IMG/VR virus record: IMGVR_UViG_3300037454_000475
Coordinates: 41,291-105,290 of that record
Strand: one strand, 5' to 3'
Length of the DNA stretch: 64,000 nt
Source of the DNA: a virus
Lineage: Duplodnaviria; Caudoviricetes
Part shown: in pieces, positions 1 to 9,503 of the stretch
Numbering within the stretch: the stretch's first letter is position 1
Layout of the letters: each line of letters opens with the position of its first letter
Made by a program: the position numbers and the translations under genes
Notes under the pieces: model-generated
Database searches by the model: none
What the model was told of the DNA's origin: nothing
The model's input: only the letters and a program-made list of their open reading frames with translations

Positions 1-104
1 TACGTGGGAACGTGTCCCACTTTCTATCTCTATTTATCTCGTGCTCGGAGTACGGAGCGAGCCCCTGTCGTTAATCACCATCCTTACCGTAAATGGCGAT
101 TTAG

Positions 105-192
105 TAGCGGGAGGAGGATTCGAACCTCCGACCTCCTTTTGGGAAGTACTGGCTTATGAGACCAGCGAGATAGTCCACTTCTCTACCCCGCG
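105..192 (-). tRNA. tRNA-Met(CAT), initiator-like, with a long variable arm
   Basis: Cloverleaf CGCGGGG...CTCATAA...GGTTCGAATCC; C1:U72 mismatch; 19-nt variable region with a hairpin. Confidence 0.8.
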
Positions 193-206
193 ATGTGTTT
201 TTAATG

Positions 207-363
207 TGGCCCCTCAAGGATTCGAACCTCGTACGCTTTCCAAAGCAGGGGCTCTTTGGAGTTTAATATCGAAAAACTCCTCGGGATCTAAAACGCATGA
301 CTTTCACATGATAGCCCAAGAGCTCTGTTGGGATATATAATAATCACCAGTCGTTAAGGGGCA
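207..363 (-). ncRNA. tRNA-framed RNA: acceptor stem and T-arm enclosing ~120 nt of hairpins
   Basis: GCCCCT/AGGGGC acceptor, CGAGG-TTCGAAT-CCTTG T-arm, four internal hairpins, no anticodon arm recognisable. Confidence 0.6.
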
Positions 364-389
364 ATTACTCCCTGTAGTTAGGTGAACTG

Positions 390-463
390 TGGTCCCGGGA
401 GGATTCGAACCTCCGACCTGCTGATTATGAGTCAGCTGCTCTAACCTGCTGCGCTACAAGACC
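390..463 (-). tRNA. tRNA-Ile2/Met (CAT)
   Basis: Canonical cloverleaf, GCTGA-CTCATAA-TCAGC; resembles lysidine-type Ile2. Confidence 0.85.
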
Positions 464-623
464 GAAGGATAATGTCCTTGTTTTCCGGCGAGAGGAGGCG
501 CTTTGCAAAGATTTTTGGACGTAATAACATCCAGTCCGGAGCTCCTCAAGGAACGGTATTATACGGTGCACCGAACGCAGATTTACATGGAATTAACCAA
601 TACGGCGTACAAGCGACATTATT

Positions 624-695
624 GCGGGGAGAACAGGATTCGAACCCATCTTATTTACGGCCTATGAACTTACTTTACCGGTATTAGCTCTTCCC
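624..695 (-). ncRNA. Degenerate tRNA-like element
   Basis: T-arm ATGGG-TTCGAAT-CCTGT and acceptor GGGAAGA/TCTCCCC; D and anticodon arms not canonical. Confidence 0.4.
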
Positions 696-774
696 GGTGT
701 TTCTTTTCAAATCCAACCTAACGGATAAAAGCCGGCCTCACGTTAGGAGCATCCCCAATATTTGTTTCCGGCAT

Positions 775-852
775 TGGTTGCGGGAACCGGATTCGAACCG
801 GTGTGGAACGGCTTATGAGACCGTGCTGGAACCATCTCCAGTCTATCCCGCA
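775..852 (-). tRNA. tRNA-Met(CAT)
   Basis: Cloverleaf, ACGGT-CTCATAA-GCCGT, encoded CCA. Confidence 0.85.
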
Positions 853-860
853 ATAAATAG

Positions 861-977
861 GTGCTTGGGTTGGACTCGCACCAACAACCTTCCGGTCTCA
901 TCCGGAGGCTCTACATAACCGCGGTGGTATTGATCAGATACCTGCTGACATCATGCCCCTATTTGAGCTACCAAGCT
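861..977 (-). ncRNA. tRNA-like RNA with ~53-nt D-loop and 6-nt anticodon loop
   Basis: GCTTGG/CCAAGC acceptor, GCTC/GAGC D-stem, TCCGG-ATGAGA-CCGGA, GTTGG-TGCGAGT-CCAAC. Confidence 0.65.
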
Positions 978-1500
978 ACGCATGTGCACTGCGCTTTTGA
1001 TTGTTTGGTGTATTAACGCCACACCGGCGTATTGGACGCCGATCAGATGACCGCATCGGCGCGCGGACTCTTGCTGTTAACGCAATAGTTGCAACGACCT
1101 TTCATGATTAGACTTTGCCTTCGTCGTCCCGGCGCCGTCCCTACTGGATCTGTTGGAGTCTGTCCCACTTCCGTTCCGTTCCTGTAAGAGTATCGAACAT
1201 CCGTGGTAAGCCGTCTTTCGGGAACCAAATATGTTTATCGCTTCCGGCATTGCATCGGCCCTCTCTTTGTGAATATATGGTCGTCTTTGGGCTTCTTGGC
1301 GGATTGGCTGGATGTTATCGCCTTTTCGGCCACGTGATCTTTCACAGCATCAGCGCCTTTCAATCCTGATGGTTTCCTGTTACATCGGGTGCCTATCATT
1401 TCAGCTACCTTTCATTTCGGCAGGAGTTAATTGAGGGGCGGACACGGGTCGGCCCAGGGCGGCAAAAGCCGCGGAATTACTCCACCCAGTTTAATCACAA

Positions 1501-1577
1501 TGGTGGACACAGAAGGGCTTCGAACCCTCGACCTCCTGACTGCCAGTCAGGCGTTCTACCAACTGAACTACTGGCCC
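1501..1577 (-). tRNA. tRNA-Ala(GGC)
   Basis: CCTGA-CTGGCAG-TCAGG, G3:U70, encoded CCA, one bulge in the acceptor stem. Confidence 0.85.
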
Positions 1578-1897
1578 ATAACATTCTCGGATGTTTTCTC
1601 CTTTATCTTATCACAAGACCAATTTCAGGTCAACTACCACTTGCAAATCTAACTCTTTGTTTGCGCGCGGGGAGGTTGTCGATCCTCCGTCTTCCGTGAA
1701 TGCTTTGATAAACACACTTCGGTTCTTTGTTGAGCTCGCGGATGGCATTTTATGGCTCCAATTCACCGGCGGGGTCATGACTCCCCAATGGCTGTCCGTT
1801 ATATTTCTATGGTTTAATCTTTCAACCTCCGAGGTCGTTCGGCGTTCCTCTGTAGGTTTTTTAATGCGCGCTAACCTACTTAATTATTGTGTGTTTG

Positions 1898-1970
1898 TCG
1901 GGTTAGGTGGGCTCGAACCACCGACCTATCGCGTATCAGGCGAGTGCTCTACCAACTGAGCTACAACCCG
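1898..1970 (-). tRNA. tRNA-Ile(GAT)
   Basis: Cloverleaf, loop CTGATAC. Confidence 0.9.
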
Positions 1971-2244
1971 GTGAGGCGGATGGAATCACTTCTTTCCGCC
2001 AATCTCATGGATACGACCAATCACTTTCCGTTTATTCGGTACTGTCAGGTGTTGGGTCGATTACTTCCACCACCCTACTGGCAGCGATCTCCTGATTTCA
2101 GCATATAGCAAACCGGTGAGTTTTGGGCCGCTTTCGGCCACGGGTGTGATTTAGTAACGTGAAATCGTATCCGTATATCTTTACCGCCCATTATACAAAG
2201 TTCCGTTCAGGTGGTTAACCATCCCTTCCAGCGATATGTGGCGG

Positions 2245-2320
2245 ATAAGAATCAATCAAATGTCTCCCAATATGTCAAAGAACGTTGTTCTTTGTTGTTG
2301 GAACCTTGTTCCTTCAACAC
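2245..2320 (-). promoter_or_regulatory. Leader with hairpin and boxA (GTTCTTTGACATATT), copy 1
   Basis: 39 nt identical to 9619-9657; directly downstream of a promoter. Confidence 0.7.
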
Positions 2321-2321
2321 C

Positions 2322-2353
2322 TATATATAATAAACACCGCTGATTTATTAACA
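2322..2353 (-). promoter_or_regulatory. Phage promoter TGTTAA-N18-TATATATA
   Basis: One of 7 copies with identical spacing. Confidence 0.75.
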
Positions 2354-2378
2354 AGGAAATTGAAAAAAAAATCGCTTG

Positions 2379-2449
2379 AGGCTCTTACTGGACTCGAACC
2401 AGTGTCTGTTGACTACGAAACAACTATTCTACCCCTAAACTAAAAAGCC
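2379..2449 (-). tRNA. tRNA-Thr(CGT)
   Basis: Cloverleaf, loop TTCGTAG. Confidence 0.8.
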
Positions 2450-2533
2450 ATGGACGGGGTTTTTGTTATTTTCTCATCGAGTGTTAGCCCCCGAAACTCA
2501 TAACTCGATAAAGTTGGGCGCTACCCAACACGC

Positions 2534-2606
2534 GGCGTATGTGCGGTGCTCGAACCCGCCAACAGGAGATTTGGTCCCCTCGCTCGCCATCTTGCGTTAC
2601 ATACTC
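2534..2606 (-). ncRNA. tRNA-like RNA with 5-nt anticodon loop
   Basis: GTATG/CATAC acceptor, AGGGGA-CCAAA-TCTCCT, GGTTCGAGC T-loop. Confidence 0.5.
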
Positions 2607-2692
2607 ATATGCGGTTAATTACTCCGCACGGGTACCCTCTCTTTCTCTTTCAATACCGCGTCCGATATTTACTCATACTCAAGTCAGGTCTG

Positions 2693-2773
2693 TACCCCGA
2701 GAGGGACTCGAACCCTCACCCTTTCGGACTGGGTTTTGAAGCCAGCGCGTCCTGCCAATTTCGCCACCGGGGT
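2693..2773 (-). tRNA. tRNA-Leu(CAA)
   Basis: Class II cloverleaf, loop TTCAAAA. Confidence 0.85.
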
Positions 2774-2951
2774 GTAAATAGGATTTCCTCTTATACTACC
2801 CATGAGGGAAACCCAAAAAGCTAACATGCACGTACACATACGATTACGTGACCCATCGGTGTCCCATATCCATCACCGAAGCGATGCACAGAGGGTGTGA
2901 GCAGCTGTACGATCCCAAGTACTGACCGGTACTTCGTTGGGCTTTCATGTC

Positions 2952-3911
2952 TTATATCTTCCCGTTAAACGGGTTCGGTATTCCGTAAATTTTGTAGATC
3001 AAATGATCATTTATATCAAATGGGTTACCATACAACTTCGAGTACCTAAATATGCAATCGTTCTTGTATTTTTCAAACATTTCATCGGTATAGGTAAGTT
3101 CCTTGTACTTCTCCCTAAAATCCATGGCAGCTTTCCAATCAAGATCCCGGATATCCTCAACCGGATCATCCATAACCGTTAACAAACCTTCAAAATAATT
3201 GAATGTGGAAGCTGATGTCAGTATATGTTTACCCATACAGATGTTCTCAAATATGCGAACCACATTTTGTGAAATTGCGGTATCCGATTCCGGGTTATGA
3301 GGTACGTCCAAAATAAATTTGGTGTTGTACACAACATCCTTGATTTCGTTGGGTCTCAATCCTTCGATACAATAAAATGACTTATCAATAAGTTTGATTT
3401 CATCAAAATATTTTTTTCTCGAACTTGATGCTTGACCAAAAAATCCAAGATTATAATCATAATCCCCGGAATTTCCGATGTGCTCTGATTGATTGTAAAA
3501 TCTTAATGGCATCCACTTGAGCTTGTTCCATTGATTTGGGAGGAGTTCCTTGTAATACTCAAAGGATTCCAGCCACAAAAGCCATATTTCATCAACATCC
3601 TGCAACCATTCATCTTCCATGTACGGCATAACCCAATACGGTGAATGTTCGGTTTCAAGTAATATCAACTTATTGTATCTCGCCTTTATTTCCTTGAGAT
3701 CGTACAAATTGATTGGTTGGGTTGGATATGGCTTTATGTCAAACGGAGCTTTTTTCGAATCAAACCGATCAATACATGGCCAATTGAATATGAGTGTCCC
3801 TTGTGGTTCGGTTTCATCATAGTGCTCAAGGATCATATCCCGAACGCTTGTGATATCCGAATTGAAGAATACACTAATATTTTTGCCACGTTGCAAATAG
3901 TTGATCTTCAT
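2952..3911 (-). CDS. Putative GT-B glycosyltransferase (319 aa) inserted in the tRNA array
   Basis: Start reassigned to MKINYL; C-terminal LGFFG..RKK / NTKFILDV / RIFENICMGK resembles CgeB/GT1-like domains. Confidence 0.55.
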   Translation of the reverse strand: MKINYLQRGKNISVFFNSDITSVRDMILEHYDETEPQGTLIFNWPCIDRFDSKKAPFDIKPYPTQPINLYDLKEIKARYNKLILLETEHSPYWVMPYMEDEWLQDVDEIWLLWLESFEYYKELLPNQWNKLKWMPLRFYNQSEHIGNSGDYDYNLGFFGQASSSRKKYFDEIKLIDKSFYCIEGLRPNEIKDVVYNTKFILDVPHNPESDTAISQNVVRIFENICMGKHILTSASTFNYFEGLLTVMDDPVEDIRDLDWKAAMDFREKYKELTYTDEMFEKYKNDCIFRYSKLYGNPFDINDHLIYKIYGIPNPFNGKI

Positions 3912-3928
3912 ATGTTTGCTTTTTATTG

Positions 3929-3997
3929 CACAACCTGTGAGGAATTGAACCTCAACCCCCGGCCGCGCCGGTGCTCTATACCGTGAGCTACAGGTGT
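3929..3997 (-). ncRNA. tRNA-like RNA with a 3-nt anticodon loop
   Basis: Normal D-arm GCTC/GAGC and T-arm; anticodon arm CCGGC-GCG-GCCGG. Confidence 0.65.
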
Positions 3998-4152
3998 ACT
4001 TCCGAATCGCACGGAATGCGGTTCCTTCAGGAGCCGGTAACTCTGTTTCCACCAGTTGGGTCAGGAACATACCCCCGCCTATTGCTACCAAGACGGCTAA
4101 TCCCTTCTCTTTTATATCGCCCGGTAGGGAACGTGCTATCACATGTGAAAAG

Positions 4153-4223
4153 TTGTCCCGTCGGGATTCGAACCCAAAATTACAGATCCAAAATCTGTCG
4201 TGTTACCGTTACACTACGAGACA
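4153..4223 (-). tRNA. tRNA-Gln(TTG)
   Basis: Cloverleaf, ACAGA-TTTTGGA-TCTGT. Confidence 0.9.
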
Positions 4224-4336
4224 ATAGTAACCCAACCTACCTCAACTTCTATTTTGCTTCATTGGCATCCTGAACCTCCGGAGAGTGGAACTTAAACCCT
4301 TTCACTGGTCTTTCAACCTTCTATCGGTTGGGTTTG

Positions 4337-4408
4337 TTGTTCTAACTGGATTCGAACCAATTCCTCCTGATCCAGGGTCAGGTGTACTACCGGATATACT
4401 ATGGAACA
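4337..4408 (-). tRNA. tRNA-Gln(CTG)
   Basis: CCTGA-CCCTGGA-TCAGG; C33 instead of U33. Confidence 0.8.
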
Positions 4409-4450
4409 ATCAACTTTGGTATAATATATGAAACCTTTACAAGAATTTCG

Positions 4451-4849
4451 TTATTCAACAATATTTATTCGGCAATTGCAGTTCTCATAAGATATCTTAC
4501 CATCTCCATTTTCAAGTATGTAATAATAATCATCCTGTGTTATTTCCAACCCTTTGAATCTGCATTGGTTGCCTCTGTGATCAATGACTTGTTTTCCAAG
4601 GTTATATTTCACATATTCACATATTGGCTTCATATTTCCGCATCCGGATCTTTCGATTTGTGAATCAACAAAATCTTCCGGTTTGGTAAGTTGAAGGCTG
4701 TAACCAATAGTGCTGAAATACGATGGAGTAAATAGTCCCAATCTTGTAAATATGCGGAACCATATACTTTCATACCAATCAAGCATCTGCTTTATGGATT
4801 TGAATCGTATTGTGTAATGAAATGGTAACCTTAAACGCATATACCGCAT
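4451..4849 (-). CDS. Hypothetical protein
   Basis: 132-aa AT-rich ORF between tRNAs. Confidence 0.65.
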   Translation of the reverse strand: MRYMRLRLPFHYTIRFKSIKQMLDWYESIWFRIFTRLGLFTPSYFSTIGYSLQLTKPEDFVDSQIERSGCGNMKPICEYVKYNLGKQVIDHRGNQCRFKGLEITQDDYYYILENGDGKISYENCNCRINIVE

Positions 4850-4866
4850 ATACCATATTTTATTTG

Positions 4867-4941
4867 CCCGAACGAACGGTTACGATCCGTCTATTTTACC
4901 GGAGTGACAGTCCGGTTCCTCACCAAGAGGCCTACGCTCGG
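4867..4941 (-). tRNA. tRNA-Asp(GTC), atypical T-loop
   Basis: CCGGA-CTGTCAC-TCCGG; T-loop ATCGTAA. Confidence 0.75.
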
Positions 4942-5000
4942 ATAGAACCACGCTTTATTTTTGTCATTGTATGATGAAGCATGGGTGAACATCACATGCG

Positions 5001-5156
5001 TGGGTATGGGTGGAATTGAACCTTGAACAACGCCGTTACTCCTGTCTTACTTGCCGCGGATTTTCGTACAGTTTCTCAACGCCGTAAACCTAACCCTCTA
5101 AATAAGAGGAACCTCCCTCACTGGAGGCCCCGCTACCGTTACGGGGTTACATACCC
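5001..5156 (-). ncRNA. tRNA-Tyr-like frame with anticodon arm replaced by a ~95-nt multi-hairpin insert
   Basis: GGGTATG/CATACCC acceptor, CCCCGTAACGGTAGCGGGG D-arm, GGTTCAATTCC. Confidence 0.6.
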
Positions 5157-5162
5157 ATATGT

Positions 5163-5236
5163 TGGCAGGGGTGGATGGAATCGAACCACCAACTACGGTT
5201 TTGGAGACCGGCATTATACCGTTTAACTACACCCCT
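5163..5236 (-). tRNA. tRNA-Trp(CCA)
   Basis: Loop CTCCAAA, encoded CCA. Confidence 0.9.
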
Positions 5237-5330
5237 ATACGTGTACCATTCACCATGTTCGAACGGTACCAATGTCACCACAACTCTATTGTTTCACCAT
5301 TATGTCCGGAGCGGTGGGAGAAGACACGCG

Positions 5331-5403
5331 TGGGAAGGAGTGGAGTCGAACCACTATCTTCGGATTTTCAGTCCGCCGCATAGACCTGCTTTGCTACCTT
5401 CCC
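5331..5403 (-). tRNA. tRNA-Phe(GAA)
   Basis: Loop CTGAAAA. Confidence 0.9.
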
Positions 5404-5410
5404 ATATATG

Positions 5411-5493
5411 CGGAGAGCAGAGGAATCGAACCTCATACGTTGCCGTACACACAATTTAGCAGAATGGTTCCTTGCCTGAAGGATTTACTCTCC
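5411..5493 (-). tRNA. tRNA-Ser(GCT)
   Basis: Class II, loop CTGCTAA, weak anticodon stem. Confidence 0.75.
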
Positions 5494-5502
5494 ATTAAGA
5501 AA

Positions 5503-5781
5503 AAACCGAGTAAGAATTGATGATCACGAAGACCTCGAATTACATGGCGAGCTACGGACTGGAGAAACGGCGGCTGGTTACGCCGATTGCATTACCACGT
5601 AGGGTTTTACCTCCTGTTGCGTTGCGCGTATGGCTCCTCACGGACAAGACCCTTTCGGGGTACCAACACTCTTCACGGAGCTGACGGTCTGCCTTCGGCT
5701 ACCGGCGCCTACATGCACGCTTATTCCGGAATTACACGTACACTTACCTCCGACACTACTGGGTGGCCCTATACTCGGTTT
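5503..5781 (-). ncRNA. Candidate ~280-nt structured RNA
   Basis: Closed by a perfect 10-bp stem AAACCGAGTA/TACTCGGTTT; internal GNRA hairpins (CCCC-GAAA-GGG, CTCC-GTGA-AGAG). Confidence 0.5.
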
Positions 5782-5799
5782 AACCGAATGAACGGTTTG

Positions 5800-5876
5800 T
5801 GGAGCAGATGACGGGGTTCGAACCCGCAAACCTCCTGCTTGGCAAGCAGGCTATCTACCAATTGATATACATCTGC
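5800..5876 (-). tRNA. tRNA-Gly(GCC)
   Basis: CCTGC-TTGCCAA-GCAGG, encoded CCA. Confidence 0.9.
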
Positions 5877-6061
5877 ATGGATGCAAGTCGCTAACGTTCT
5901 CTCGAAACCTCACTTGCGAACCCGGCCGTGGTTCATGGTTTTGGCTGATCTACCTCCTCACAGCTGGCGCCCGGATTATATGGCAAATCCGGGTTAGCCC
6001 CGTTTTACTCCGCCGGGAAGCACTTATTGTCTCCGGCCCCCGGTCGCTTAACGGTACAGCG

Positions 6062-6143
6062 TTGGAAGGGAGGGATTCGAACCCCCGAACCCAATGGGAG
6101 TGGATTTACAGTCCACCGCGTTTAACCACTTCGCTACCTTCCA
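6062..6143 (-). tRNA. tRNA-Tyr(GTA)
   Basis: GTGGA-CTGTAAA-TCCAC, class II. Confidence 0.9.
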
Positions 6144-6286
6144 ATGTTTGGAACTAATGAAGCTGTGTCAACTTTCATTCTTCATCCGAGTTAAAGAATT
6201 ATCTGTCATTTAACTAATGTGACCATTGTATTCAAGGCGCCCGGCCACTATCCTCGGTTTTTGTACTTCATGTCATTGTCCCATTG

Positions 6287-6382
6287 TGCCGCCGGTAGGG
6301 CTCGAACCTACTTACTGCTAAAGTCCACTACGAAAATTTGTTAAAGCAGATCGGTTTTACAGACCGGTTCCGTTACGTCGGC
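6287..6382 (-). ncRNA. D-armless tRNA(GTA)-like RNA with ~39-nt variable arm
   Basis: 8-nt connector instead of D-arm; CGGT-CTGTAAA-ACCG; CTGCT/AGCAG variable stem; GTAGG-TTCGAGC-CCTAC. Confidence 0.65.
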
Positions 6383-6427
6383 ATTATAATAACTCCCATA
6401 TTACTTGGCTGTATACCCTATAGGAAC

Positions 6428-6489
6428 GTGCGTTGTTTGGAGTCGAACCAAATTCAGTAACAGCATCACTTGACAAATGCTTCGCGCAC
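6428..6489 (-). ncRNA. Mini tRNA-like element lacking an anticodon arm
   Basis: GTGCG/CGCAC ends, GCAT/ATGC hairpin, TTTGG-TTCGACT-CCAAA. Confidence 0.5.
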
Positions 6490-6523
6490 TACCTTTCCAG
6501 TTTATACAGCATGAAAGGAATTG

Positions 6524-6595
6524 AGCCGATGGAGGGATTCGAACCCCCGACCAACTGATTACAAAACAGTAGCGCTACCACTGCGCCACATCGGC
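6524..6595 (-). tRNA. tRNA-Thr(TGT)
   Basis: Loop TTTGTAA. Confidence 0.9.
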
Positions 6596-6602
6596 TTATC
6601 TG

Positions 6603-6676
6603 TCTCCCTGGAGGGACTCGAACCCCCAACCTTATGATCCGTAGTCATGCGCTCTATCCAATTGGGCTACAGGGAG
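6603..6676 (-). tRNA. tRNA-Arg(ACG)
   Basis: Loop CTACGGA. Confidence 0.9.
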
Positions 6677-6764
6677 GAGTTTGAAGAGTTACTACGCTAC
6701 CCTTCGAAGCTGTTCCAACGGTGCCTTATCAGGCAGCGATGGCCATTTTTGATCTATTGCCGTT

Positions 6765-6850
6765 TGGCGGAGAATTGAGGTATCGATCCCCATACAGAAT
6801 GTACAGCACGTTTTCAAGACGGCTCCCCTCACCATCAGGGTTAATTCTCC
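6765..6850 (-). tRNA. tRNA-Ser(TGA)
   Basis: Loop CTTGAAA, class II, encoded CCA, T-loop ATCGATA. Confidence 0.8.
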
Positions 6851-6949
6851 AATGGAGCCGCTTTCGAGTGATCCCGGACACTACCCCGGCGGGCGCGGCA
6901 TACCCATATGTGTTTGTGCGATTGTATCCTATAAAAGGTGGGTGAGAAC

Positions 6950-7250
6950 TACGCCCTCACCCGTGGCTGTGCTTCGGTGCCTAACTTTAGGCAGCGATAG
7001 CCATTTCAGTACGTGCGCCAGTTATTGCGCGGACACCATCTCTTTTGTTCCTTCGGCCGCTGTCAAAACCAAACACCCCCATATGAGAAGGTTTATACGA
7101 TACCTACAAACGTTTGGGGACACCGTATGGCATCGATCCACCACCGATTTTTACGAAATCGGAAACGTCTTTAATTGGCGAAAGAGTGGAGGTGACGGGA
7201 GTCGAACCCGTGTCCAAACGGATTATCTAACAAAATACAAACGATTGTGC
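6950..7250 (-). ncRNA. ssrA: Circularly permuted (two-piece) tmRNA; tag (A)GARTEMAIAA at 7019-6987
   Basis: Acceptor piece ending GGACACGGGTTCGACTCCCGTCACCTCCA (7187) lies upstream of 5' piece GGGGGTGTTTGGTTTTGACAGCGG (7080); 7-bp acceptor stem with G3:U; outer limits approximate. Confidence 0.9.
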
Positions 7251-7254
7251 CATG

Positions 7255-7328
7255 CGGTGTTGAAGGGGCTCGAACCCTCGACCTCCGCCGTGACAGGGCG
7301 GCATTCTAACCAGCTGAACTACAACACC
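7255..7328 (-). tRNA. tRNA-Asp(GTC)
   Basis: Canonical, CCGCC-CTGTCAC-GGCGG. Confidence 0.95.
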
Positions 7329-7451
7329 ATATAGAAATCCAACTCAAAAATCCGTAGACGTGGGGGTGAAAAAGGAAAGGAGGTGACCCACAAGCCGTTC
7401 GTTCGGCATCGGATTAAAACCTGTTGGATACTGCGGACGCAGTGGTTTTTG

Positions 7452-7524
7452 CGGGATCAGAAGGAATCGAACCTTCAACCTACGGATTAACAGTCCGGTG
7501 CTCTACCGATTGAGCTATGAACCC
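7452..7524 (-). tRNA. tRNA-Asn(GTT)
   Basis: Loop CTGTTAA. Confidence 0.9.
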
Positions 7525-7584
7525 ATATTTTGCAGATTTTATTGTCAGCTGGTAACGTCTGCAAACCTTACTGACAACCTTTCG

Positions 7585-7658
7585 CGGGGGAGGTGGGGAT
7601 CGAACCCACGACCATGTGCTTAACGGGCACCCGCTACGACCAACCGAGCTCCTCCCCC
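7585..7658 (-). tRNA. tRNA-Asn(GTT), C33 variant
   Basis: Loop CCGTTAA. Confidence 0.75.
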
Positions 7659-7669
7659 ATTATTAAAAG

Positions 7670-7742
7670 TACCACCGGTGGGATTCGAACCCACAACCTC
7701 ACGGTTAAGAGCCGCGAGCTCTGCCAATTGAGCTACGGAGGT
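7670..7742 (-). tRNA. tRNA-Lys(CTT)
   Basis: Loop CTCTTAA. Confidence 0.9.
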
Positions 7743-7822
7743 ATGATGATCGGATATTGTAGCATTAGGTACAAGTGCACCCTGAGGCATGTTTCACCTC
7801 GGATCTCGGCATATCCGATTTG

Positions 7823-7895
7823 TGCTCCCGGTGGGACTCGAACCCACAACTCCCACATTAAAAGTGTGGTACTCTGCCAGTTGAGTTACGAAAGC
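7823..7895 (-). tRNA. tRNA-Lys(TTT)
   Basis: CCACA-CTTTTAA-TGTGG. Confidence 0.9.
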
Positions 7896-7946
7896 CTACT
7901 GTTTACCTGATTTGTCGTCTTCCACGACAGTGCGTTTTCGTCTCAT
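7896..7946 (-). CDS. 16-aa mini-ORF MRRKRTVVEDDKSGKQ abutting tRNA-Lys
   Basis: A-rich leader, ATG; stop codon directly precedes tRNA nucleotide 1; paralog at 8055-8114. Confidence 0.5.
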   Translation of the reverse strand: MRRKRTVVEDDKSGKQ

Positions 7947-7988
7947 GTTATTAATTTTTTATTTGTTTCAGTTTAAGTGTGACTTAAT

Positions 7989-8064
7989 TGGTGCTCCCGC
8001 AGGGACTCGAACCCTGAACTCCCGGAGTAAAAGTCCGGTACTCTACCAATTAAGTTACGAGAGC
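7989..8064 (-). tRNA. tRNA-Lys(TTT)
   Basis: CCGGA-CTTTTAC-TCCGG, encoded CCA. Confidence 0.9.
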
Positions 8065-8114
8065 CAACGTTTACCTGATTTACCGTCCTTTACGGCTTTA
8101 CGTTTTCGTCTCAT
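8055..8114 (-). CDS. 19-aa mini-ORF MRRKRKAVKDGKSGKRWLS overlapping the tRNA-Lys 5' end
   Basis: Paralog of 7896-7946 with conserved frame. Confidence 0.5.
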   Translation of the reverse strand: MRRKRKAVKDGKSGKRWLS

Positions 8115-8551
8115 AGCTTAAATGTTTATTTGATTGTTGTTCGCCCTTTAATTAAAAACACCCTACGAACGTTGTACTCGGCAACCTCGGATATTGTGGA
8201 GGGCCCATCCACGGTTTTGACCAGCTAAAGTTTGATGGTGCTTGGTATCCCAATCTCCACTTGCTCGCCTGCGGATGGCGGATGCCGCTGTGGCCCGGCA
8301 ACTGGCAACGGAGTACCCATCCGATCAGGGCCGTGCTGTTCCTTGGCCAACACGGATACCATTTAGACCTCCAATAGTTATCGAAACCTGAAGTATCCAC
8401 CTACCATCAGGGGAAGTTTGCAACCTTCCCGGGAATCCAGTTTCAACCTCCCGTCCTTTACACCACCTCGCGCATTTCACGGATCAGCCTTCTCCGGAGT
8501 TGCCTTCGCTCTCACGGCCGCGTGGTTCCACGGATTGGAGTATTGTTTCTG

Positions 8552-8719
8552 TGATCTCGGTGGGAGTTGAACCCACATTACCATAATCGTTTGCTTTACC
8601 ACTGCAATGGTGGGGCGACTAACACGCGTTGTCGCGCTGTCCTCCCCCAAACTTTCAGGTACTACCACTATATCCCAGTGTGAATCTGTTGCAGCATCAT
8701 CTCTTTGGAGTACGAGACC
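8552..8719 (-). ncRNA. tRNA-framed RNA with ~130-nt internal domain
   Basis: GGTCTCG/CGAGATC acceptor, GTGGG-TTCAACT-CCCAC T-arm. Confidence 0.6.
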
Positions 8720-8730
8720 TTTTAAATATG

Positions 8731-8867
8731 CACCAAGACGAGGATTCGAACCTCGGCCTCAATGTCCTCTCGGGCATTGTATTCTGTCCTCTTTCCATCG
8801 TGGCAACTCCGGCCGGCTGTACAACCAGCTTATTGGTCTTACCACGACTTCATCTAACTACCTTGAT
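8731..8867 (-). ncRNA. tRNA-like RNA with expanded D region and a GAGA tetraloop in place of the anticodon loop
   Basis: ATCAAGG/TCTTGGT acceptor, CAATGCCC-GAGA-GGACATTG, CGAGG-TTCGAAT-CCTCG. Confidence 0.65.
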
Positions 8868-9051
8868 TGATTGATTATTTCCCTCACTCATCAACCGGTG
8901 GTGATTCGCGACTCACCACCCGACCCTATTTGCCGGTTCAAACTCTACCGGTGTCGGCTGATTACGTTACGCGGGAGAAGCTACCTCCCTGGAAGGTACT
9001 CTACCTTCCCAAACAGAATTGTTTGTTATGAATGAGTTATTTCCTCAACTT

Positions 9052-9124
9052 GTGGATTGGTGGGATTCGATACCCACATCACGCGGTTGCATACGACCGG
9101 AATATTACTTATACTTACAATCCA
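9052..9124 (-). ncRNA. Degenerate tRNA-like element
   Basis: TGGATTG/CAATCCA acceptor, GTGGG-TATCGAAT-CCCAC; irregular anticodon arm. Confidence 0.5.
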
Positions 9125-9430: not shown

Positions 9431-9503
9431 AGCGAAGAATGGGACTCGAACCCACGATCTCGACCTTGGCAAGGTCATATTCTACCAACTGAACTACCTT
9501 CGC
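9431..9503 (-). tRNA. tRNA-Gly(GCC)
   Basis: GACC-TTGCCAA-GGTC. Confidence 0.9.

Follow-up and report, generated by a model that had tools for sequence, protein, structure and literature searches.

Stable RNAs framed like tRNAs have been annotated in bacteriophages T5 and T4. In the T5 record (AY543070.1), the label 'tRNA-like stable RNA with unknown functions' is given to RNA1 and RNA2, that of RNA3 is 'putative tRNA-like RNA', and five further stable RNAs are found in the T5 tRNA region. No function is known yet for T4 RNAC and RNAD, in the case of RNAC after decades (PMC3014915, PMC9697503). This study deals with 12 tRNA-framed elements that had been listed in a preliminary description of a 64,000-nucleotide (nt) stretch of phage DNA (Caudoviricetes), referred to as the window, which covers bases 41291-105290 of a 105,290-bp IMG/VR contig (IMGVR_UViG_3300037454_000475). 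Coordinates are window positions unless they are called genome positions. All of the 12 elements lie on the minus strand, the same as the tRNAs, in a tRNA island. In T5 RNA1 (144 nt) and RNA2 (125 nt), the acceptor stem and a canonical T-arm go together with a D-like hairpin and a large insert, a build that recurs among the island elements. T5 RNA3 (73 nt), whose T-loop has 8 nt and whose loop at the anticodon position has 6 nt, is like the element 9052-9124. RNA1-3 belong to the tRNA cluster of the phage, share the strand of its tRNAs and are neighboured by other stable non-tRNA RNAs, and the island elements are placed alike. T4 species 1 RNA (rnaC, 139 nt) shows the same build, with a T-arm of CCGGG-UUCGAAU-CCCGG, an acceptor-like closing stem and a two-hairpin insert of about 100 nt, and it also lies directly beside tRNA genes. 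On the other hand, the sequence likeness does not extend past 12-14 nt of the T-arm for the T5 RNAs, and no homology to rnaC was seen past the T-loop. T5 has three such RNAs and T4 a single one, compared with 11 T-arms outside called genes (orphan T-arms) in the island. The acceptor of rnaC has two U-U mismatches, and rnaD has no T-arm. The T5 RNAs were seen as stable in infected cells, whereas the island elements are known here from sequence alone. Because the T5 and T4 annotations and the matching build indicate that this kind of RNA was already known, the earlier suggestion of an undescribed system does not hold. The island elements appear to be of the same kind as T5 RNA1-3 and T4 species 1, as new members unrelated in sequence.

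Default ARAGORN called none of the 12 listed elements. A relaxed run with introns allowed and a lower threshold gave matches at 206-324, 860-977, 3930-4095, 8551-8719 and 8730-8804. The gathering cut-off of Rfam RF00005 (29 bits) was reached by none of them, the score of 6287-6382 being 26.6 bits. A strict T-arm was then defined as a 5-bp stem with G53, TTCRA and C61. The 105-kb contig contains 50 strict T-arms, all on the tRNA strand, of which 39 fall in called genes and 11 are orphans. The orphans are all inside the island and none is found elsewhere in the contig. Seven of the 11 are in the window (215-231, 633-649, 3938-3954, 6295-6311, 6436-6452, 8560-8576 and 8739-8755) and match listed elements. 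Relatives for comparison were drawn from IMG/VR and the JGI metagenomes: a close relative on a 2.5-kb contig (L019), G003 (locus L015), the more distant G001 (locus L009, on a 110-kb contig) and G002 (locus L010), the short related contigs L024 and L025, and L021, which is a portion of a 321-kb contig. Compared with the 11 orphan T-arms of this contig (G000), there are 10 in G001, 12 in L021, 6 in G003, 3 in Rctr197k, 1 in T4 (rnaC) and 0 in Phass-1. The lineage is unusually rich in orphan T-arms. Acceptor pairing was tested against shuffled upstream sequence. The pairing of 8552-8719 clearly exceeded chance (P = 0.006), that of 8731-8867 (P = 0.12), 207-363 (P = 0.12) and 6287-6382 (P = 0.11) was modest, and that of 624-695, 3929-3997 and 6428-6489 was non-significant. 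The folding z values were –3.0 for 8731-8867 (element A), –2.9 for 8552-8719 (element B), –1.9 for 207-363, –1.8 for 5001-5156, –1.8 for 3929-3997 and –1.4 for 861-977, those of the true tRNAs of the island being –1.0 to –2.4. The values of 624-695 (0.0), 6428-6489 (–0.6) and 9052-9124 (–0.9) were weak.

A T-arm and an acceptor-like stem with a replaced or expanded decoding half were found in 8731-8867, 8552-8719, 2534-2606, 3929-3997, 207-363 and 861-977, in part in 5001-5156, which has a 2-bp T-stem, and not in 1663-1871. Of the canonical anticodon arm, with U33 in a loop of 7 nt and a stem of 5 bp, only 6287-6382 has an equivalent, its stem counting 4 bp here and 5 bp in G001. The others have loops of 3-6 nt or none, except that 861-977 ends in the 7-nt loop CUGAUCA on an abnormally long arm. 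The small anticodon loops of 3, 5 and 6 nt were found as reported, namely the GCG triloop of 3929-3997, CCAAA of 2534-2606, the hexaloops of 8552-8719 and CGAGA of 8731-8867. Overall, the listing is upheld for about eight of the 12 elements, whereas the support is weak for three and 1663-1871 does not belong. Elements 8731-8867, 8552-8719, 6287-6382, 2534-2606, 3929-3997 and 5001-5156 are well supported, 207-363 and 861-977 are plausible as tRNA-framed elements, and 624-695, 6428-6489 and 9052-9124 are weak and count as remnants. The term family is not appropriate, since the elements shared no more than 12-15 nt of the T-arm in an all-against-all comparison. A duplicated tRNA-Glu module is the exception, which lies in the 6 kb of island upstream of the window together with further such elements overlooked in the first reading.

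The clearest support for change focused on the decoding half was given by 3929-3997. The anticodon arm of this anticodon-less cloverleaf is collapsed to CCGGC-GCG-GCCGG, and its orthologue in G001, G002 and L024 is a tRNA whose anticodon is CUA. Eight lineages, this one and seven others, were aligned at this position. The acceptor, D and T arms were kept with compensatory changes, and the anticodon arm appeared as a 7-nt CUA loop, as an extended stem with a 5-nt loop or as a 3-4-bp stem with a 3-7-nt loop. The element is 80% identical to its counterpart in L019, where the T-stem GAGG/CCTC is changed to GATG/CATC. Base pairs were counted on RNAalifold consensus structures with one relative per element, and here 18 pairs were the same, none one-sided, two compensatory and none broken. 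The acceptor is frayed (5/7). As a means to judge the CUA tRNA, G001 and G002 were checked for TAG recoding, of which no clear sign was seen. The other anticodon-less cloverleaf, 2534-2606, has a 6-bp stem closing the 5-nt loop CCAAA, a short D-arm and a T-arm with a 4-bp stem and a 9-nt loop. It is 90% identical to L019, on par with the true tRNAs, and its pairs comprise 21 same, one one-sided, two compensatory and none broken. The paired changes are a loop-closing A-T to T-A and GCGG/CCGC to GTGG/CCAC.

Elements A and B carry large folded domains in the tRNA frame. Element A (8731-8867, 137 nt), identified by a strict top-half scan, has a 7/7 acceptor (ATCAAGG/TCTTGGT), U8-A9 and a canonical T-arm (CGAGG-TTCGAAT-CCTCG). 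There is a 52-nt hairpin at its D-arm position and a 7-bp hairpin with the CGAGA loop at its anticodon position. In G003, the homologue of element A likewise follows tRNA-Gly(gcc), in the corresponding position. Over the 60 nt at the 3' end, the two differ at two adjacent bases only (CC to TT), with the pairing kept as G-U, whereas the tRNAs of the two phages are about 80% alike. The pairs comprise 26 same, four one-sided, one compensatory and three broken. When the pattern of the 3' half was searched in viral contigs, G003 was the only match. Element B (8552-8719, 168 nt) has a 7/7 acceptor (GGTCTCG/CGAGATC), a T-arm of GTGGG-TTCAACT-CCCAC and an insert of about 125 nt with the two conserved hexaloops CUGCAA and UUGCAG. 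Its comparison with G003 gave 19 same, one one-sided, five compensatory and no broken pairs. A covariance model built from the B pair scored 195 and 180 bits on the two sequences used to train it, which follows from its construction. Over all fetched loci, it gave weak frame-level matches only (L024:761-891 with 26 bits and L021:12561-12680 with 22 bits). Elements A and B still occur together in the corresponding place of G003, where the majority of spacers can no longer be aligned.

The neighbours of the anticodon-less cloverleafs are also conserved. Element X (3998-4151, minus strand) is a structured RNA of about 150 nt between tRNA-Gln(ttg) and 3929-3997, which always lies directly 3' of it. 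It was found at 11 loci in total, and its identity is 98.7% to L019 and 82-87% in other lineages, so that it is far better kept than the surrounding tRNAs. A tRNA flanks it on each side at 11 of the 11 loci, and it is always followed by the same tRNA or tRNA-like gene. Compensatory changes were seen in one hairpin. No Rfam match was obtained at E ≤ 10, and a search of its pattern against 185,579 species genomes found nothing. Element X is a candidate small RNA, whose ends may be set by the flanking tRNA processing sites. The listed start of a 396-amino-acid (aa) open reading frame (ORF) overlaps element X and is probably spurious; when this ORF was used as bait for relatives, the apparent protein match turned out to be element X itself. 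The order of a tRNA, a conserved RNA of 85-150 nt and an anticodon-less tRNA recurs, as in Gln-X-3929, in Leu-spacer-2534 and in two tRNA-Glu modules. The latter lie in tandem upstream of the window (genome 39038-39208 and 39405-39572), each with tRNA-Glu, an RNA of about 95 nt and an anticodon-less tRNA. The loops CUACCA and UGGUAG of the 95-nt RNA are complementary to each other, and many paired changes separate the two copies of the module. In addition, the spacers 2450-2533, 2607-2691, 4224-4335, 4942-5000, 5237-5329 and 5494-5635 (minus strand) are 94-99% identical to L019, and 5578-5642 also matches G001 with 86% identity. These conserved spacers are likely further small RNAs or processing signals, judging from their sequences.

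The selection on the elements was assessed against a neutral yardstick. In the comparison with L019, the 132-aa ORF of the island keeps an identity of 58% at its fourfold sites and of 63% at its third codon positions. The true tRNAs are 90-98% identical and the spacers between tRNAs 94-99%. The compensatory changes and an identity well above the neutral 58% indicate that most of the elements are not decaying pseudogenes and that their structure is under selection. The earlier view that change is concentrated in the decoding half with the frame kept is therefore upheld by the eight lineages at 3929-3997, the compensatory pairs and an identity far above neutral. Compensatory pairs were seen in six elements. 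No homologue was found among the relatives for 624-695, 6428-6489, 861-977 and 207-363. Plain decay, in which the elements would be dead and functionless copies from duplication and loss in tRNA arrays, is quite improbable. It would suit 624-695, 6428-6489 and 9052-9124, which have no homologue and z values of 0.0 to –0.9, and it could draw on the modest identity and frayed acceptor of 3929-3997 and on the middle of 5001-5156, which is 42% identical with indels. However, it does not agree with compensatory changes alongside few or zero broken pairs, with an identity well over the 58-63% of the yardstick or with the conservation of A and B against G003, where the spacers are not conserved. It also leaves unexplained why inserts of 60-125 nt have a better fold than shuffled sequence (z about –3). 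Decay fits the three weak elements and not most of the others. The idea of ordinary tRNA genes that are interrupted and spliced to normal tRNAs is hardly credible. Intron-permitting ARAGORN does report elements as intron-bearing tRNAs, but no group I intron or other Rfam family was detected at E ≤ 10, and the inserts of 23-125 nt are too short for group I and stand at non-canonical positions. Their removal leaves no proper anticodon stem-loop, and the inserts are themselves conserved with compensatory changes. Along with this intron reading, a chance origin of the elements and the transfer-messenger RNA (tmRNA) and YrlA readings were excluded. The elements share with tmRNA an acceptor stem and a T-arm framing a large non-tRNA domain, and a permuted tmRNA is present in the same island. 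Nevertheless, they have no G3-U70 pair, tag reading frame or Rfam tmRNA match, the only tmRNA match being 6896-7276. YrlA (RF02553) is likewise a non-decoding tRNA mimic that is found in phages too. Its topology is opposite, the termini of the RNA lying in the Ro-binding stem and a loop closing the acceptor, and its only match (26.4 bits against a cut-off of 69 bits) spans two true tRNAs at 6537-6655.

Defence evasion was considered mainly for the element 6287-6382, a deviant tRNA-Tyr(GUA) with G1-C72, A73 and the anticodon loop CUGUAAA. It has 6 nt in place of a D-arm and a variable arm of 35 nt. Its anticodon loop is identical to that of the neighbouring canonical Tyr gene (6061-6143). The homologue in G001 (L009:9887-9985) shares 14 same pairs, no one-sided, six compensatory and no broken pairs, and it is the sole Tyr-anticodon element in the 110-kb G001 contig, where no other Tyr tRNA was called. 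Considering the Tyr loop, the identity elements, the long variable arm and this sole Tyr element in G001, the earlier label of non-decoding is wrong for 6287-6382, which by its sequence is probably still a decoder, working or recently working. Septu and retron-Eco7 cut tRNA-Tyr in its variable loop, and T5 tRNA-Tyr escapes through a different loop (PMC13096335). The elements might accordingly be variants or mimics shaped by host tRNA-cutting nucleases. Rebuilt arms would have removed the cleavage site and left charging and decoding intact (6287-6382), or the mimics would soak up defence proteins that bind tRNAs. The Tyr variant fits this explanation in view of the cutting by Septu and retron-Eco7, because it keeps all the Tyr identity elements with a wholly rebuilt variable arm, no D-arm and six compensatory pairs. 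As an account of the elements, however, evasion is unlikely. The anticodon-less members cannot replace depleted tRNAs and have no loop of the sort that anticodon nucleases recognise and cut, and the earlier proposal of decoys for these enzymes finds no support on the same point. In addition, no defence or counter-defence gene was linked to the elements, and a canonical tRNA-Tyr adjoins the variant.

We consider it somewhat more probable than not that the elements are tRNA-derived genes in one long transcription unit of tRNAs and small RNAs of a large uncultured phage, in which the tRNA frame serves as a handle for processing and stability. The descent from tRNAs, the structural selection, the conservation of neighbours and the likeness in build to the T5 and T4 RNAs are shown by the sequences, and we infer from these the roles in processing, stability and punctuation. 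The acceptor stem, the T-arm and usually the D-arm elbow would be recognised by host tRNA-processing enzymes, which would excise each element from the precursor through RNase P at the 5' end, 3' trimming and CCA addition. The retained frame would then give protected and stable ends. The rebuilt lower half may have led to four sorts of product. The Tyr element 6287-6382 would be an odd but decoding tRNA. The sealed-loop cloverleafs 2534-2606 and 3929-3997 may act as cutting marks that set the ends of conserved neighbours such as X. Frames bearing folded domains of 60-125 nt would be represented by 8731-8867, 8552-8719, 5001-5156, 207-363 and 861-977, and 624-695, 6428-6489 and 9052-9124 may be decaying remnants. 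The recurring order of tRNA, conserved RNA and anticodon-less tRNA favours the role as cutting marks and stable ends, and the processing scaffold proposed in the preliminary description seems to fit the island layout. tRNA-shaped processing marks are known from mitochondrial tRNA punctuation, MALAT1 mascRNA and the gammaherpesvirus tRNA-miRNA units, where a fold without a decoding role is retained since RNase P and RNase Z cut there and release the neighbour RNA. These known marks are eukaryotic or organellar, whereas the cutting in the island is proposed from the layout, and the Rfam mascRNA model gave a single weak match (19 bits against a cut-off of 42.5 bits).

Several points weigh against this processing handle. 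CCA is encoded by none of the elements, and no CCA-adding enzyme was found in the contig, the completeness of which is estimated at 58%. With a 2-bp T-stem in 5001-5156 and a frayed acceptor in 3929-3997, these two would be poor RNase P substrates. True tRNAs are dense here, and extra cutting marks seem hardly needed. Three elements without a homologue fold no better than shuffled sequence, and covariation from one relative per element provides no proper statistic. It is also possible, but doubtful, that the tRNA frame is a general small-RNA carrier in phages of this lineage, so that host enzymes would excise and stabilise unrelated domains acting in takeover or counter-defence. The cargo may then consist of the inserts carried by A, B and 5001-5156 and of neighbouring RNAs, for instance X, whose anticodon-less tRNA partner is obligate. 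If this is true, a function would at last be given to the tRNA-like stable RNAs of T5 and T4. A frame that serves as the processing handle of cargo RNAs would, if true, be a natural counterpart of engineered tRNA-guide arrays. The island and its relatives show that tRNA-like stable RNAs can be numerous, selected for structure and tied to strongly conserved neighbour RNAs.

The remaining elements retain the frame to different degrees. In element 5001-5156, the acceptor is paired 7/7 (GGGTATG/CATACCC), the D-arm is extended and ends in a GG loop, and the T-loop carries the conserved motif GGTTCAATTCC on the merely 2-bp T-stem. The insert consists of two conserved hairpins and a hypervariable middle of about 60 nt. 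Identity to L019 is 76% in the 5' part and 92% in the 3' part, compared with the low value of the middle, and 19 pairs are the same, four one-sided, four compensatory and none broken. Element 861-977 is a class-II-like frame with a 6-bp acceptor, a D-arm, a long variable hairpin, a non-canonical T-loop (TGCGAGT) and the lengthened anticodon arm; its relaxed ARAGORN match includes a 32-nt 'intron'. Element 207-363 has a canonical T-arm (CGAGG-TTCGAAT-CCTTG), a 6/7 acceptor and a multi-hairpin insert of about 125 nt. The position of its 5' acceptor strand is ambiguous (363 or 324). In G003, the place of this element is taken by another aberrant tRNA, the anticodon loop of which has 14 nt. The near-complete 9052-9124, with a 7/7 acceptor and 8-nt loops at the T and anticodon positions, is probably a degenerate tRNA. 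It is absent from G003, where just 77 nt lie between Gly(gcc) and element A. The remnant 624-695 has a canonical T-arm (633-649) and a 6/7 acceptor with an A-C mismatch, and shows no U8 and no clear D or anticodon arm. The 62-nt remnant 6428-6489 has a canonical T-arm (6436-6452) and a 5-bp closing stem. The tRNA-framed assignment of 1663-1871 (minus strand) was rejected, since a T-arm is lacking and L025 has not retained the GCGCGC closing stem. What overlaps it, at about 1713-1893 (minus strand), is another structured RNA that is conserved and shows no tRNA features. This RNA is 80% identical to L025 over 181 nt with five compensatory pairs.

The island is a single 16-kb cluster at genome 35.1-50.8 kb with all tRNA genes on the minus strand, and thus it starts 6 kb before the window and stops at window position 9503. 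Of the 41 genes that ARAGORN found in the contig, 24 (23 tRNAs and a permuted tmRNA) are located in the window; G003 has 37 such genes. Rfam gave 21 tRNAs and tmRNA_permuted in the window, in agreement with ARAGORN. The permuted two-piece tmRNA (6896-7276, minus strand) has the tag GARTEMAIAA, and a related one in G003 has the tag GARQEMALAA. No close phage genome was found in INPHARED, which gave tRNA-sized matches only, and no relative was obtained with the OmpA-like protein upstream of the island as bait. RtcB was not found in the contig. A scan for promoters and terminators gave promoter matches at chance level only, and the sole clear terminator lies upstream of the island (10100-10071). 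No Pfam or PHROGs family was assigned to either of the two ORFs inside the island. One of these, with 324 aa, lies in a stretch of about 1 kb (2950-3926, minus strand) that is missing from L019, where the sequence joins window position 3927 straight to 2949. This stretch is likely a mobile insertion inside the tRNA island, as far as the sequences tell.

Some of the true tRNAs are also unusual. The only Ser tRNAs (GCU, UGA and GGA) of the phage are located at 5410-5493, 6768-6851 and genome 35334-35417 on the minus strand, and the two inside the window had been overlooked in the first reading. With acceptor stems of 8-9 bp and T-stems of 4 bp, they are missed by default ARAGORN and scored by Rfam as weak tRNA-Sec. 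They resemble the 8/4 and 9/3 tRNAs described previously (PMC5389517). Since default finders miss odd and probably working tRNAs such as the D-arm-less Tyr and the long-acceptor Ser, phage tRNA counts and non-decoding labels need care. tRNA-Trp (5163-5236, minus strand) is 63% identical to its L019 counterpart between spacers of 95-98% identity, and many of the stem differences are paired. Its divergence suggests allele replacement or fast change. Finally, a tRNA of 89 nt at 104-192 (minus strand) combines a CAU anticodon with a variable arm of 7 bp, which is not usual for Met or Ile, and it is conserved in G003 (L015:4846-4934).

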